This document shows, in pieces, positions 7,986 through 32,581 of a stretch of 64,000 nucleotides of DNA; within the stretch, counting starts at the first letter, position 1; each line of letters opens with the position of its first letter. The DNA is from Candidatus Kerfeldbacteria bacterium (GTDB lineage: Bacteria; Patescibacteriota; Patescibacteriia; UBA9570; XYC2-FULL-38-9): NCBI GenBank assembly GCA_043813585.1, contig JBDRKW010000002.1, positions 19,182-83,181 on the forward strand, in the 5' to 3' direction. The notes beneath the pieces are model-generated. The model saw only the letters and a program-made list of their open reading frames with translations, had not been told where the DNA came from and ran no database searches. The position numbers and the translations under genes were made by a program.

Positions 7986-8043
7986 TAACCGAACAAAACC
8001 CGAATGTCCAGACATCCTGTGGATAACCGAACAAAACCCGAAT
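7986..8043 (-). promoter_or_regulatory. two identical 20-nt boxes (ATTCGGGTTTTGTTCGGTTA on the recA coding strand), 38 bp apart in the recA promoter; candidate SOS (LexA) operators
   Basis: Exact 20-mers at 7986-8005 and 8024-8043. The same box pair with the same 38-bp period occurs 35-92 nt upstream of lexA (32524-32581). The proximal box lies between the -35-like TGGACA and the -10 TATGAT. Confidence 0.6.
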
Positions 8044-15930: not shown

Positions 15931-15983
15931 AAAAGTATTATAGCAGAAATTGGATATTTTTTCCAGCCCCGTTTGGACTTAGA

Positions 15984-16020
15984 GTAAAAAAAGTCCCGGA
16001 TCTGTTGCCAGAGTCCGGGA
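15984..16020 (-). terminator. Rho-independent terminator downstream of the 438-aa secreted protein gene
   Basis: Minus strand reads TCCCGGA-13 nt loop-TCCGGGA followed by CTTTTTTT. Confidence 0.6.
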
Positions 16021-16045
16021 GCCCACCTCGATGGGGGGGGTTGGT

Positions 16046-17362
16046 TCAGCGCCTCCAGGAGCGGGTGAGCTGCTGGTCAAGCGCGTGGCCGTACTCGCAG
16101 GTGGTAGACGGTGCATAGACCGGATGGCCTTGCCCGCACCATCCTTTGACCTCGCCGACGTCGATGAGGCCGTTGTCGTAGTAGGAGTACGCCTGGCGCG
16201 GATGGTAGGAACGGTAGTACACCGCTCCCAGCCCGACCCACCACGGGTCGTACGGCGCGTACCACGGGTCCCAGTAGACCACGACGTAGTGACGCCGCGG
16301 AGGATACCAGCCCCAGCTCCACCACTGGTCGTAGCCGTAGCTGTACCGCCAGTTGTTGTGATGGTAGTGCCACGCGTTGTGGGACTGGTGCCAGCTATGG
16401 ACCGCCAGGTTGGTGTGGTGCAACGGCCTGTCCAGGTCGTAGTGCGGCCTGGGATGCGAGCTACCGCGCGCGTGGCCGTGTCCGCCGGTGGTACGGGAGT
16501 CGGGGCGGCGCTCGTGGCTGGTATGTGCCATCGATGTCCGGTCGCGCAGGTTGCTCGGCCGTGTGTTGCGGTAGAACTCACTTGGCCGCTGACCGGTGGC
16601 GTGGTCGTAGGTACGGCTGCGGTCGACGCGCTGCAGGCTCTGCGCCCGTTGCACGTTTCGATCCGACGGCGGATGATTCACGCGGTCAGTGGCCTGGGTG
16701 CGGCCGCTGCTGGACTGCCTGGTCGTGTCGCGCAGGTTGCCGTAGTGCTCGCTCGGCCGCTGGCCCGAGTTCGGGTCGAAGCTGCCGCGGTCGACGCTGG
16801 GCGTTCGGTCACTGCTTGGCTGCCTGGCCGTGTCGCGGTTGAAGTCGCGCGATCGGTCCGGCACCGCCTGACGGTGATCATACGTACCCATACTCGACGA
16901 ACGATCCCGCTGCTGGACGCTCCGGTCCGGCGTGCGCTCGGTTGAGCGGTCCGGATAGATGTTCCGCTGCGGGATTTGGCTCGTCGGCTGCCGGTACGCA
17001 TCGCGGGTCGGCGCGCGGTAGCTGCCGCGGCTATCGTGCGAACCCGATGCCGAACTCCGATCCGGCGTGCGATATGTGCTCCGGCTGTTCGAACCGGAAC
17101 TCGAATGCCCCGAACTGCGGCTCGGCGCGCGGTAGCTCGAACGGCCGGAGTGGCTCGTCGAACCGGAAGACCGATGCGCCGAACTGCGGCTGCCGGAACT
17201 CGAGTGCCCCGAGCTGCGATGCGCGGAGCTGTGCGACCGCTGGGCCGAATGCGAACTCCTCGAACTGCTGCGCTTCTTCTTGCCCTTGCCGGCGAACGCC
17301 GGAGCAGGCACGAGAAGCAGCAACGCCGCGAGGATCACAAAAAAACGATTTGCCTGGTTCAT
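16046..17362 (-). CDS. secreted low-complexity Ser/Arg/His-rich protein with an aromatic (Trp/Tyr/His) and Cys-containing C-terminal domain; no known family
   Basis: ATG at 17362 behind a GGAGG RBS. Signal peptide MNQANRFFVILAALLLLVPAPAFA. About 300 aa of SRSSHS/HRSSG-type repeats. C-terminus ...HYVVVYWDPWYAPYDPWW...GWCGQGHPVYAPSTTCEYGHALDQQLTRSWRR. Region GC is about 65-70%. Confidence 0.7.
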   Translation of the reverse strand: MNQANRFFVILAALLLLVPAPAFAGKGKKKRSSSRSSHSAQRSHSSAHRSSGHSSSGSRSSAHRSSGSTSHSGRSSYRAPSRSSGHSSSGSNSRSTYRTPDRSSASGSHDSRGSYRAPTRDAYRQPTSQIPQRNIYPDRSTERTPDRSVQQRDRSSSMGTYDHRQAVPDRSRDFNRDTARQPSSDRTPSVDRGSFDPNSGQRPSEHYGNLRDTTRQSSSGRTQATDRVNHPPSDRNVQRAQSLQRVDRSRTYDHATGQRPSEFYRNTRPSNLRDRTSMAHTSHERRPDSRTTGGHGHARGSSHPRPHYDLDRPLHHTNLAVHSWHQSHNAWHYHHNNWRYSYGYDQWWSWGWYPPRRHYVVVYWDPWYAPYDPWWVGLGAVYYRSYHPRQAYSYYDNGLIDVGEVKGWCGQGHPVYAPSTTCEYGHALDQQLTRSWRR

Positions 17363-17491
17363 GAGGCGTCCTCCCTGTATGGTGGCGTGATTTCGATGGT
17401 AGGTTCAGCCCCAAAACAACAATTTTCATTGCGCTTAAAGGGCCTGTTACCCTAACATCACAGAGTATATTTTTCAAGTCCAAATCTCCAG

Positions 17492-17531
17492 TAAAGAAAG
17501 AACCCCGATATCCGTCATGGAATCGGGGTTC
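17492..17531 (-). terminator. Rho-independent terminator after the small secreted paralog
   Basis: Minus strand reads GAACCCCGAT-12 nt-ATCGGGGTTC followed by TTTCTTT. Confidence 0.65.
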
Positions 17532-17606
17532 TCCGTTCGATATTGCCGCGTCATGCGGCTAAAGTTGTTGCGCCGGCGGCGGGTGTTCCGCGGCCGGCGG
17601 TTGTGT

Positions 17607-17936
17607 CTAGCGGCGGCCGGTGCGTCGCTCCCACTCGCGGGTGGCGTTCTGGTCAATTGACCTTCCGCACACCGACACCGAGCTGGGTGCGTACACCGGA
17701 CACCAGTTGGCATCCACCCCGCGCTGGTCGCCGGTCGTGTAGACCGGCCCGGCCTGGTTGCCCCACGGGTGGTAGTCGTACCGCGGGTACGCCGGCCGCG
17801 GGTGCGACCGGTGCACGACGACCACGTGGGTCGTGTGCCGCGGGCGGCCGTGGCGCGGACGCGCGTCGGCGATCGCCGGCACGACCATCATCAGAATCAG
17901 GGCAGCCAGGGCCAGGGCACTCGTGAACTTCTTCAT
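17607..17936 (-). CDS. small secreted His/Arg-rich protein, paralog of the C-terminal domain of the 438-aa protein
   Basis: ATG at 17936 after AAAGAGGAGAG RBS. Signal peptide MKKFTSALALAALILMMVVPAIADA. Shares the HVVVV...PW...VY...WCPVYAPSSVSVCGRSIDQNATREWERR motif with the upstream protein. Confidence 0.7.
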   Translation of the reverse strand: MKKFTSALALAALILMMVVPAIADARPRHGRPRHTTHVVVVHRSHPRPAYPRYDYHPWGNQAGPVYTTGDQRGVDANWCPVYAPSSVSVCGRSIDQNATREWERRTGRR

Positions 17937-18146
17937 TTCTCTCTCCTCTTTTTCGTCCATCGCGTCTGCGACGGGCGTATGTTACGAACGGAGTGTTCTC
18001 CCTCCTTCTTTAAGAAGGTTAAGTCGTCACATGACGACAAAAGAACAAAACAGTCTATCATAAAAAAATCAAAATGTCAATACCTAAAATCGGGCGTGGA
18101 ACATGTAGTGCTACTACGCCATGTTCCACATTTAATGAGAAAGAAT

Positions 18147-30695: not shown

Positions 30696-30724
30696 AGTAT
30701 ACCAGTCAACGGGCGGTGTTTCAA
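30696..30724 (-). promoter_or_regulatory. sigma70-type promoter TTGAAA-17-TATACT driving a leaderless protease mRNA
   Basis: On the minus strand, -35 TTGAAA (30724-30719) and -10 TATACT (30701-30696). The ATG at 30688 lies only 7 nt past the -10. Confidence 0.5.
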
Positions 30725-30726
30725 TA

Positions 30727-30758
30727 AAAAAAGAAGACCCGGTTCCTCCGTCGGGTCA
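30727..30758 (-). terminator. Rho-independent terminator overlapping the stop codon of the zinc-ribbon gene
   Basis: Minus strand reads GACCCG-10 nt-CGGGTC followed by TTCTTTTTTT. Confidence 0.65.
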
Positions 30759-31403
30759 TCGCTTCGGCTCGAGGTAGAACAGGCCGCATTGGCCGCATCG
30801 TCGGGCCCGGACAGTCTTCCTCGTCTTCACGTCTACTCCCGTGAATCCCTCCGACGCCTTCATGGTGGCGCCGCAGTCGTTATTCGGGCAGTAGTAGCCG
30901 TTTTCCTTGGTCGGACCGTACGCAACCCGCATGCCCGCGGTATTGATCTCCGCACGTGGCGAGATCTTCTTCATCAGCCAGGCGAAGAACCCGAGCACCT
31001 TGACGAACAGCCAGAACCGCGGCTTCTTCGGAACCGGCCGAAGGGCCGACTTGTCGGAAGCGCGTCCCCCGGGACCGAGTCCCTCGGGATTCGTCTCCGA
31101 CTGCCGGTCAGATGGATACGGCGGCCGCGGCTTGGCGGGTTCGTTCGGGAGCAACTCCGCCTTCATCACCTTGAACGGCTTGCTGCAACGCGGGTAGCTG
31201 CAGACATGGACCGTGATGATCCGGGTCGAATCATTCTGGTCGCGAACCTGCTGCGTCTTACAGTCGTTCCATACGAGCACCCGGCCGCAGGAGGGACAAT
31301 TCTCAACCTTGCCGGTCGCGTAGAGGACAGGAATGTTCTCGGCGTCGATCATGGCGAGCGGTCCCATATTGAAGTCATGCTCACCATTGGAAGAGCTGGA
31401 CAT
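30756..31403 (-). CDS. hypothetical membrane protein with two CxxC...CxxC zinc-ribbon motifs flanking one TM helix
   Basis: GAGGAG RBS 7 nt before ATG 31403. CPSCG...C..C (N-terminal) and CPNNDCG...CGQCG (C-terminal). TM FWLFVKVLGFFAWLM. GC-rich with GC3-biased codons. Confidence 0.6.
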   Translation of the reverse strand: MSSSSNGEHDFNMGPLAMIDAENIPVLYATGKVENCPSCGRVLVWNDCKTQQVRDQNDSTRIITVHVCSYPRCSKPFKVMKAELLPNEPAKPRPPYPSDRQSETNPEGLGPGGRASDKSALRPVPKKPRFWLFVKVLGFFAWLMKKISPRAEINTAGMRVAYGPTKENGYYCPNNDCGATMKASEGFTGVDVKTRKTVRARRCGQCGLFYLEPKR

Positions 31404-31461
31404 GATTGACTCCTCAAAATCATGGTTGGTGGGGCTTCATCTTAGCGATAACGCGCAAAAA

Positions 31462-31500
31462 GTCAACGGACGTTGACACAGGCGCCAAAGTTGCTATGAT
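31462..31500 (+). promoter_or_regulatory. palindromic operator GTCAAC-GGAC-GTTGAC overlapping a TTGACA-16-TATGAT promoter, in the divergent region between the zinc-ribbon and acidic-protein genes
   Basis: gtcaacggacgttgac at 31462-31477. -35 TTGACA at 31473-31478, -10 TATGAT at 31495-31500. Confidence 0.5.
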
Positions 31501-31639
31501 GAGCCGGTTGTGTTCATTTATAACTAACCAGTAGGGAACATTGTGGGCAAAAAGGAACTGCCCTTTTATTGTTTACAGCGTCCCCTGCTGGTGCCACGCA
31601 GGTTAACAACTTCAACCGAACGAGAGAGGACACAAGTAC

Positions 31640-32344
31640 ATGAACTCACTGCAGCGCGCATACTTCCACCTGTTCCTGGGCATGGTGCTCAAGGATGGGA
31701 TGGACCTGGACGAGGAGGCCCTGAACGGCTTCTGTATGACGATCCGTAAGGACAACGGCGAGACGACCGAGGTGGTCGAGGAGCCGGAGCCCGAAGAGCC
31801 CGCGGCGGAGCCGGAGGAGCCCGCGGCGGACGAGGTGGTCGAGGAGACCCCGGAGGATGGCGAGCCAGAGGTGGTCGACGAGGTGGCCGAGGAACCCGCG
31901 CCCGAGCTGGATGCGGAGCCCGAGGCCGAGGTGGTCGACGAGGTGGCCGAGGAGCCCGTGGCGGAGCCCGAGCCCGAGAACGACGGCAGCGACGAGGTGG
32001 TCGAGGAGCCGGAGCCCGAAGAGCCCGCGGCGGACGAGACCACGCCCGAGGAGACCCCGGAGGACGACGGCAACAACGATGCCGATCCCGCCGAGGAGCC
32101 CGAGGGTGGCGACGAGGAGACCCCGGACGAGGAAGCCCCCGCCGAGGAGCCCGAGGGTGGCGACCCCGAGCCGGAGGACGACGGCAACGACGAGGAGTCC
32201 GAGGACAACGGAGAGCCCGAGGACGAGAGCGGCGAAGACGACCCCGATGACGGGGATGGTGATGACAACAACGGCGGGGACGACGATGACCCGGCCGGCG
32301 ACGAGGACGGTGGCGACGAGCCCAATGAGGACGACGTCACCTGA
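31640..32344 (+). CDS. hyper-acidic Glu/Asp/Pro-rich tandem-repeat protein with a short structured N-terminus
   Basis: AGAGGA RBS before ATG 31640. MNSLQRAYFHLFLGMVLKDGMDLDEEALNGFCMTIRKDNGETT, then about 190 aa of EVVDEVAEEPAPE.../EEPEPEEPAA repeats. About 60-nt DNA tandem duplications. GC about 68%. Confidence 0.55.
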   Translation: MNSLQRAYFHLFLGMVLKDGMDLDEEALNGFCMTIRKDNGETTEVVEEPEPEEPAAEPEEPAADEVVEETPEDGEPEVVDEVAEEPAPELDAEPEAEVVDEVAEEPVAEPEPENDGSDEVVEEPEPEEPAADETTPEETPEDDGNNDADPAEEPEGGDEETPDEEAPAEEPEGGDPEPEDDGNDEESEDNGEPEDESGEDDPDDGDGDDNNGGDDDDPAGDEDGGDEPNEDDVT

Positions 32345-32495
32345 TCGTGGGAGGTGCCCTTGCGCACCTCCCGCAACCTGAACGAAGAGTGGCACCAGAA
32401 TTGGGGAGGGAGATGCGTGAGCGCATGAGAATCACAGTTACAGCAAACCGCAGCGCGTCTCCCATCTCCCTTCATTTACAACTCCATTTAATAGA

Positions 32496-32522
32496 AAGCG
32501 GGATCATTCCCGCTTTTGTTTA
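32496..32522 (+). terminator. Rho-independent terminator about 150 nt downstream of the acidic-protein gene
   Basis: AGCGGGA-tcatt-CCCGCT followed by TTTGTTT. A perfect 9-bp hairpin GGGAGGTGC-ccttg-GCACCTCCC (32349-32371) lies right after the stop codon. Confidence 0.65.
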
Positions 32523-32523
32523 T

Positions 32524-32581
32524 ATTCGGGTTTTGTTCGGTTATCCACAGGTAGAATTGACATTCGGGTTTTGTTCGGGTA
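32524..32581 (+). promoter_or_regulatory. two 20-nt boxes (ATTCGGGTTTTGTTCGGTTA and ATTCGGGTTTTGTTCGGGTA), 38 bp apart, upstream of lexA; candidate SOS operators
   Basis: Boxes at 32524-32543 and 32562-32581. Identical (one mismatch) to the recA promoter boxes. The proximal box is preceded by -35-like TTGACA (32557-32562). Confidence 0.6.

Follow-up and report, generated by a model that had tools for sequence, protein, structure and literature searches.

A divergent pair of orphan genes for a double zinc-ribbon protein and a polyacidic protein as a probable lineage-specific accessory module of Candidatus Kerfeldbacteria

In Firmicutes, RpoE, the delta subunit of RNA polymerase, consists of a folded N-domain (residues 1–90) followed by a disordered acidic region (residues 91–173) with a net charge of −47 (PMC7749165). 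C4 zinc-ribbon membrane proteins, among them those of the families DZR (PF12773), zinc_ribbon_2 (PF13240), and Zn_ribbon_9, combine Cys knuckles of the CxxC or Cx4C type with one hydrophobic helix, the ribbons being arranged in tandem on one side of that helix. Here we analyze a stretch of 64,000 nucleotides from Candidatus Kerfeldbacteria (hereafter the window, to which all coordinates refer unless stated otherwise), in which a two-gene module of about 1.8 kb, located at roughly 30725–32520 between lexA and the gene of an S8/fn3/FG-GAP peptidase, encodes on opposite strands a double zinc-ribbon protein and a protein with a long acidic tail. With a probability of roughly 0.6, a value that applies to the identity and architecture of the locus and leaves the mechanism to be graded apart, we consider this locus to be a lineage-specific accessory module of two divergent orphan protein-coding genes carried by one sub-lineage of Candidatus Kerfeldbacteria. 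As it stands, the locus is an ordinary orphan accessory gene pair of a sort common in genomes of the Candidate Phyla Radiation.

The gene on the minus strand (30756..31403), whose ATG is preceded at a distance of 6 nt by the Shine-Dalgarno sequence GAGGAG, encodes a basic protein of 215 aa (isoelectric point 9.45, net charge +12.6) that is identical to the NCBI entry on a 133-kb metagenome-assembled contig, the hypothetical protein ABIG66_00415. The motifs CPSCG (residues 36–40), CPNNDCG (172–178), and CGQCG (203–207) and a hydrophobic helix are present as an earlier note on this DNA had described them. An N-terminal C4 zinc ribbon (approximately residues 33–77) contains C36, C39, C68, and C73 in addition to a conserved C48, a disordered Pro-rich linker leads from it to the hydrophobic aromatic helix (129–146), and a C-terminal C4 zinc ribbon (approximately 165–213) contains C172, C177, C203, and C206. 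The second N-terminal Cys pair, for which the spacing C..C had been given, exists in the form C68-x4-C73. Each domain has two Cys-knuckle pairs (CxxC or Cx4C) that are conserved in the only relative of the protein, termed P0005, all 9 of 9 cysteines being invariant between the two homologues, and beta-hairpins are predicted around the knuckles in AlphaFold2 models. As far as can be judged from sequence, the protein is a member of the C4 zinc-ribbon structural class, with predicted zinc binding, and belongs to no curated family. The helix probably anchors it in the membrane.

Neither protein of the pair could be assigned to a family in Pfam, NCBIfam, PHROGs, or PADLOC, where sub-threshold zinc-knuckle matches were the best result. 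With the Pfam zinc-ribbon models (DZR, Zn_ribbon_9, zf-ChsH2, zf-tcix, and others) the best scores were 14.6 bits versus 29.1 required for the window protein and 19.2 versus 31.2 for P0005; NCBIfam gave no match to the zinc-ribbon protein, PADLOC and PHROGs gave only zinc-knuckle matches (best E values 0.04–0.07), and a profile of the protein matched none of the sequences of solved structures. Considered against C4 zinc-ribbon membrane proteins as a group, the sub-threshold matches are solely to zinc-ribbon and treble-clef models (best 14–19 bits versus 23–31 required), and the knuckles and the single hydrophobic helix are shared, whereas the two ribbons of the present protein flank the helix instead of lying together on one side of it.

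The gene on the plus strand (31640..32344) encodes a protein of 234 aa that contains 63 Glu, 40 Asp, and 29 Pro, has a net charge of about −99, and is predicted to have neither a signal peptide nor a membrane span. Its first 35–40 residues or so form a conserved, hydrophobic N-domain that is probably helical. Glu, Asp, and Pro make up 65% of the last 190 residues, in agreement with the earlier estimate of more than 60%; Glu and Asp account for 50%, Lys and Arg are entirely absent, the net charge of this tail is −95, and it lies far on the disordered side of a charge-hydropathy plot. The first half of the tail contains five [DE]VV[DE]E motifs among runs of Glu and Pro, and Asp, Gly, and Asn are abundant in the second half. 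Within the tail alone a regular expression counts four such motifs, a number matched in 0 of 20,000 shuffles, with internal duplication accounting for much of this. Repeats in the gene are degenerate, and the 60-nt tandem units that had been claimed are not borne out: Tandem Repeats Finder (TRF) gives a period of 54 with 2.8 copies and 76% matches, as well as periods of 12, 15, and 21, and a 59-nt segment recurs 225 nt away with 86% identity.

In its combination of a small N-domain and a long, disordered acidic tail the acidic protein resembles the delta subunit, which in our view is the closest functional analogue of a cytoplasmic polyanion that resembles nucleic acid and sits on a small docking domain, although no homology was detected. 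The delta subunit has a HARE-HTH domain of approximately 90 aa, whereas the N-domain of the acidic protein spans approximately 40 aa, and 0 Pfam families were found either with the whole protein or with residues 1–47; because HARE-HTH is absent, the acidic protein falls outside the delta family. Furthermore, its tail is twice as long as that of delta, twice as charged, and Pro-rich, and its gene is linked to the gene of a zinc-ribbon membrane protein and not to RNA polymerase genes. Another acidic protein, Arp of Treponema pallidum (TP0433), is Glu-rich, contains tandem repeats of 60 bp that are nearly perfect, ends in a SPOR domain, and has been proposed to act in the envelope (10.1101/2022.08.02.502389). 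Acidity is all that the two have in common, the present protein having degenerate repeats, no SPOR match, and no signal peptide. A match of the N-domain to polyubiquitin among solved structures (E = 8e-6) was rejected as a summed-repeat artefact, given that no single stretch passes and that the score drops with ubiquitin copy number.

In a word-indexed protein search the zinc-ribbon protein retrieved only itself and the acidic protein retrieved nothing. An exhaustive phmmer search of 1.84 billion representative proteins yielded a single relative of the zinc-ribbon protein, namely P0005 (209 aa, E = 6e-28, 37–42% identity), which is encoded on L001 and L002, two Logan contigs that were assembled independently. 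The P0005 gene lies directly upstream of, and co-directional with, an orthologue of the S8 peptidase gene (approximately 54–55% identity), which is followed by MgtC, Mur ligase, and rpoB genes; this is the synteny of the window, where the minus-strand order is rpoC, rpoB, Mur ligase, MgtC, S8. Divergent from P0005, L001 contains an open reading frame (ORF) that aligns with the acidic N-domain (13/35 identities, 22/35 positives, E = 1e-8, within the first 39 residues) and goes on as a Glu/Asp/Pro tail with DVVDE and EVVEE motifs. The DNA of the zinc-ribbon/S8 junction and that of the divergent control region are also alignable between the window and L001. An assembly chimera was rejected, since the same S8, zinc-ribbon, and acidic-gene junctions occur in two independent assemblies. 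A neighbor-joining tree of S8 proteins places the window and L001 as sister lineages (bootstrap 100/100), and identity between them falls from 90% in the rpoB N-terminus to 63% in the Mur ligase, 54% in S8, and 37% in the zinc-ribbon protein.

Other loci with an S8 orthologue present a different picture of the interval between lexA and S8. The two genes are direct, divergent neighbors separated by 155–262 bp in L003, L005, L007, and L008. In L006 the slot is occupied by one orphan gene of 266 aa with 60% GC in a genome of 43% GC, in L010 by four orphan genes, one of which is GC-rich and homologous to that of L006, and in L009 by a relative of another of the L010 orphan genes. In L004 the context is another one, with Peptidase_M23 upstream of S8 and no lexA. 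Searches with tblastn using the zinc-ribbon protein and the acidic N-domain found nothing in the other S8-orthologue loci, and the pair is confined to the window and L001/L002. The comparison with related genomes that the earlier note had proposed shows the pair to be missing from L003 and L005–L010, and it is neither universal nor core-like in its codon usage. In Kerfeldbacteria the lexA/S8 intergenic region thus has the appearance of a place where GC-rich genes land recurrently, an insertion slot that is used repeatedly and in which the inserted genes are always GC-richer than the host. Given that the junction and intergenic DNA are conserved and that the two lineages are sisters, the simplest history suggested by these comparisons is a single gain of the pair in their common ancestor, at a slot that has been hit repeatedly. 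As a separate observation, the homologous slot orphans of L006 (4976–5776 of that contig, minus strand) and L010 (1543–2523, minus strand), with approximately 60–66% GC in hosts of 43–52% GC, contain the HAD-phosphatase-like motifs DxDxT, LTGR, and DNEP and have a weak match to a PHROG polynucleotide kinase (E = 9e-4), and the slots of L010 and L009 also hold a large Ala/Glu/Pro-rich orphan gene.

The two genes of the module share a control region with divergent promoter-like sites. On the zinc-ribbon side the site reads TTGACT-16-TAAGAT (31439..31466, minus strand) and in L001 TTGACA-16-TAAGAT. The site aimed at the acidic gene, TTGACA-16-TATGAT (31473..31500, plus strand), agrees with the consensus at 11 of 12 positions and has the TG of an extended −10 element, as the earlier note had largely read it, and its L001 counterpart is TTGACA-16-TATTAT, likewise with 11/12 matches and TG. 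The palindrome GTCAAC-GGAC-GTTGAC (31462..31477) overlaps these sites and is, on this evidence, made up of the two back-to-back −35 hexamers of divergent, predicted sigma-70-type promoters.

Downstream of the acidic-gene promoter lies an element that the earlier note did not contain. The 133-nt 5′ leader of the acidic gene (31507..31639, plus strand) is highly structured (−45 kcal/mol, z = −3.8 for the full length), and in the predicted fold its 5′ end and the Shine-Dalgarno region form a helix, which also appears in the consensus fold with L001. Within it, a conserved hairpin of 66 nt and 24 bp (31527..31592, plus strand) has a GC-rich lower stem and an upper stem rich in A-U and G-U pairs; in an alternative fold the upper part forms a short GGGCA/UGCCC stem followed by UUUUAUUGUUU. 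The hairpin is 82% identical to L001, and the intergenic DNA is better conserved than either protein. All 24 of 24 pairs form in both genomes, with 3 double and 5 single compensatory changes and 0 broken pairs, and shifting the partner columns lowers pairing to 48–56%. Folding is more stable for the sense than for the antisense strand both in the window (−34.9 kcal/mol, z = −5.4, versus −28.3, z = −2.6) and in L001 (−29.3, z = −3.4, versus −20.7, z = −0.4), a strand specificity that is due to the G-U pairs. Rfam 15 gave no gathering-level match in the window, and no family scored at E ≤ 5 within the leader. When a covariance model built from the leader was run over the window and ten related loci (178 kb of related sequence), no further copy turned up, and a pattern scan for the leader DNA in metagenome and viral contigs gave no match. 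We infer that the leader is a candidate cis-regulatory RNA that controls translation or attenuation, and the conserved hairpin would be new as such. A small leader peptide was rejected, as the conserved nucleotides fall in different frames and the distance from the start codon to GTGCCA is 54 nt in one genome versus 52 nt in the other.

The composition of the module raises the question of its origin. Its GC content is 63.1% (zinc-ribbon gene 61%, acidic gene 70%, intergenic DNA 47.5%) in a window of 52.1% GC, or 51.4% without its two GC-rich blocks, so that the block is atypical as claimed earlier while the figure of 65–68% given for it was too high. GC content at third codon positions (GC3) is 0.79 in the zinc-ribbon gene and 0.89 in the acidic gene versus 0.48–0.75 in 44 other ORFs, which upholds the claim of GC3-rich codon usage unlike that of the neighboring genes. 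Glu is encoded by GAG in 92% of cases versus 41% in the background, Asp by GAC in 78% versus 50%, Pro by CCC in 69% versus 10%, and Lys in the zinc-ribbon gene by AAG in 17/17 cases versus 54%; the usage differs from that of rpoB and rpoC as well. The pair could therefore be recent foreign DNA from a GC-rich host, phage, or plasmid, with a composition that has yet to drift, a view in keeping with the distinct codon choice, with GC3 values well above a background of about 0.60, with the absence of the pair from most relatives, and with the GC-richness of the other slot occupants and of the first of the two GC-rich blocks. We nevertheless consider recent transfer improbable, because the same position, orientation, and junction DNA recur in a deeply diverged sister lineage, and no homologue in a potential donor was found by tblastn in phages and plasmids, in viral contigs, or among the 1.84 billion proteins. 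Scans of genome and metagenome contigs with the zinc-ribbon alignment and with the S8 C-terminal alignment also gave no match. Measured as a genomic island, the module has atypical composition and is absent from related sites, but neither a donor nor mobility signatures accompany it: no tRNA, integrase, or flanking repeat was found. A GC-rich stretch could also generate a shadow ORF, in which case the acidic reading frame would be noncoding or the opposite strand would be the expressed one. Indeed, ORFs are open in four frames over 31612–32475, and a Ser/Gly-rich antisense ORF of 287 aa, a frame that is open in both genomes, has GGAG 6 nt before its ATG. However, translations of that antisense frame are unalignable between the genomes at E ≤ 100, and its reading must cross an 11-bp GC hairpin (32347–32374), whereas the sense N-domain is conserved. 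We therefore take the plus-strand ORF to be the gene, because of this difference in conservation, the GC pattern of its coding frame (GC1 0.84, GC2 0.37, GC3 0.89), its strong promoter, and the sense-favoring leader hairpin. Both ORFs and their strands had been called correctly in the earlier note, and the noncoding reading has next to no probability in our estimate.

What the module does has been explained, or can be explained, in other ways as well. The palindrome was taken in the earlier note for an operator, which would be bound by a dimeric regulator of one or both promoters. It is a perfect 6-4-6 inverted repeat that overlaps both −35 boxes, and an inverted repeat, TTGTCAA-N8-TTGACAA, occupies the equivalent place in L001. 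Its significance lies in this position and conservation, inasmuch as inverted repeats of this geometry, perfect and with arms of 6 bp around a 4-bp spacer, are not rare, the window containing 23 of them. On the other hand, each arm is a correctly spaced −35 hexamer in both genomes, and the GTCAA/TTGAC cores are 6 nt apart in the window versus 8 nt in L001, a difference that is unexpected for the operator of a dimeric regulator and natural for independent −35 boxes. A search for the palindrome elsewhere in the 64-kb window, as had been suggested, found no further exact copy, and the module has no regulator gene and no LexA box within 3 mismatches. The presence of the palindrome and its overlap with the −35 element are thus as described earlier, and an operator role is unlikely. 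Considerably less credit is due to the proposal that makes the zinc-ribbon protein an anti-sigma factor or sensor in the membrane, modulated by the acidic protein. The zinc-ribbon protein shares with zinc-binding anti-sigma (ZAS) factors of the RsrA/ChrR type an N-terminal Cys domain followed by a membrane segment, and its overall layout of Cys-rich N-terminal domain, hydrophobic helix, and C-terminal domain would fit. ZAS factors have the motif HxxxCxxC, however, and here K-V-E-N in the window protein or A-V-E-N in P0005 precedes C36-x2-C39, which places Lys or Ala four residues before C36. Neither zf-HC2 nor any other anti-sigma model of Pfam or NCBIfam matches the protein, and no sigma-factor gene lies beside the pair in the window or in the L001 neighborhood, the neighbors being the genes of the S8 peptidase, MgtC, Mur ligase, LexA, IMS_HHH, and RNase_H_2 proteins; the anti-sigma proposal therefore strikes us as highly improbable. 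A module for defense or counter-defense, in which the polyanion is a DNA mimic or decoy within a variable hotspot, would account for the slot being hypervariable between lineages, for the extreme negative charge, and for the atypical composition. DNA mimics such as Ocr and ArdA have a very high negative charge density too, but they are compact folded proteins, and the acidic tail is of low complexity and predicted to be disordered. Since, in addition, no relatives of the pair that could speak for a DNA mimic, an anti-restriction protein, or a chaperone appear in family, phage, plasmid, or defense libraries, PADLOC and PHROGs gave no match, viral contigs contain no relatives, and inheritance appears vertical, we think a role in defense very unlikely.

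That the two proteins are partners, which we propose with low confidence, is suggested by their exclusive co-occurrence, by a common control region, by an atypical codon usage that both genes have, and by opposite charges (+13 and −99). On the simplest model, the acidic N-domain would dock the polyanion onto the membrane-associated zinc-ribbon protein, the acidic tail would serve as a polyanionic brush or decoy that resembles nucleic acid or binds cations, and the leader RNA would set the synthesis of the acidic protein post-transcriptionally, its closing helix being predicted to occlude the ribosome-binding site. This mechanism of docking, brush or decoy, and leader gating is speculative, and we give it a low probability. 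Still more doubtful is an ambitious version, according to which the locus would be a vertically inherited system of two components and of a new kind, in which a membrane-tethered basic double zinc-ribbon protein docks a decoy polyanion of charge −99 under an undescribed leader RNA, with selection holding the GC-rich codons. Should the two proteins indeed be partners, they would constitute a compact model for a membrane-docked bacterial polyanion. The GC3 excess of the pair over its neighbors, 0.16–0.29 in both the window and the L001 lineages, is itself at odds with the view of unameliorated foreign DNA, as it has been kept in two deeply diverged sisters, and it may help to explain how reduced genomes keep up their composition.

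Several points weigh against the reading that we favor. A single ancient gain leaves the persistence of that GC3 excess in both lineages unexplained. Only two instances of the pair are known, and the acidic ORF of L001 ends at the contig edge after 84 codons; as the instances are so few and the second acidic gene is cut, the covariation in the leader rests on two sequences, and its shuffle control is not significant (65/500). The transmembrane helix of the earlier note is recognizable as the hydrophobic helix 129–146, but as a membrane span it is only borderline, the 19-residue Kyte-Doolittle maximum being 1.29 in the window protein and 1.91 in P0005. AlphaFold2 run with one or two sequences gave poor models of the zinc-ribbon protein (predicted local distance difference test, pLDDT, 46 and 50), and Foldseek of the model against the PDB found no match at E ≤ 0.001. 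Some regulator could use the inverted repeat besides RNA polymerase, and the interaction of the proteins, zinc binding, and the firing of the promoters are predictions.

The acidic gene is followed by three hairpins in series (32345–32523). A perfect GC-rich hairpin directly after the stop codon (32347..32374, plus strand; −23.2 kcal/mol, z = −6) has 11 bp, not the 9 bp reported earlier, and no U tract; a long hairpin follows at 32403..32470 (plus strand; region z = −5.4), and a canonical intrinsic terminator with a 10-bp stem and a T run (32494..32517, plus strand) forms the right end of the insert. The long hairpin and the terminator might jointly make up a small RNA of their own, approximately 120 nt in length. 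Rfam yielded in this region only a chance-level match to RsaE (E = 3.6). Reading the hairpins as an integron cassette with attC was rejected, as there is no integrase and no R′/R″ core sites were seen by eye. On the other side, the zinc-ribbon gene is followed by a weak terminator-like element (30724..30757, minus strand) with a 6-bp stem, GACCCG/CGGGTC, a 10-nt loop, and the run TTCTTTTTTTATT. Its DNA is conserved in L001 and the S8 promoter comes directly after it, and because its fold is no better than that of shuffles we regard it as a weak terminator, with read-through into S8 being possible.

The locus tags and accessions (ABIG66_00415; LexA MFH1425887.1, counted from MFH1425878/79) imply one annotated coding sequence between the zinc-ribbon gene and lexA, and none of 23 candidate products from both strands of that interval is present in a collection of 15 billion proteins. 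The acidic protein failed to retrieve even itself in the word-indexed search, and collections of this kind may contain too few proteins of very low complexity.

To the right of the pair lie lexA and a small IMS_HHH gene on the plus strand, followed by a minus-strand gene of the RNase_H_2 family. At 32525 begins the conserved lexA promoter, which contains two LexA boxes. The box, TTCGGNTTTTNTTCGG, occurs twice upstream of lexA and twice upstream of recA, and exact copies of the paired direct-repeat motif TTCGGGTTTTGTTCGG (TTCGG-N6-TTCGG) are located at 32525–32540 and 32563–32578 (plus strand, upstream of lexA) and at 7989–8004 and 8027–8042 (minus strand, upstream of recA). Two boxes flanking a TTGAC −35 element are kept upstream of lexA in L003, L005, L006, L007, L008, and L010, and the direct repeat TTCGGGTTTTGTTCGG is probably the LexA box of Kerfeldbacteria. 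The alphaproteobacterial LexA box, GTTC-N7-GTTC, is likewise a direct repeat and not a palindrome. Between 30700 and 32513 no LexA box was found within 3 mismatches; a weak similarity of 61% at 31496–31523 is without the first half-site. Control of the pair by the SOS regulator LexA was rejected, there being no LexA box near the module promoters.

For the S8 peptidase, the longest ORF starts at TTG 30724 (minus strand) and has 973 aa, whereas NCBI uses ATG 30688, which gives 961 aa. A promoter-like site, TTGAAA-17-TATACT at 30724..30696, overlaps the longer start, which speaks for the shorter gene, whose leader would then be very short. An imperfect direct repeat of 15 nt, AGTCAACGG[G/A]CG[G/T]TG, occurs at 30704–30718 and 31461–31475 with 13/15 matches. 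Its copies overlap the −35 regions of the S8 and zinc-ribbon promoters and thus bracket the zinc-ribbon gene; the repeat could be due to chance or be a duplicated promoter segment.

The first GC-rich island of the window (15979–17990; 66–69% GC), at a site between an amidohydrolase gene and rpoC, contains two minus-strand genes (16046..17362 and 17607..17960) with GC3 values of 0.82 and 0.87. They encode two secreted orphan proteins with signal peptides, one of which includes an extended low-complexity region rich in Ser, Arg, and His. Each protein is a singleton in the protein collection and without a match in Pfam or PHROGs, and the two share a Trp/Tyr/Cys-rich C-terminal domain, WC..PVYAPS..C...DQ..TR.W.RR (BLASTP E = 2e-8).

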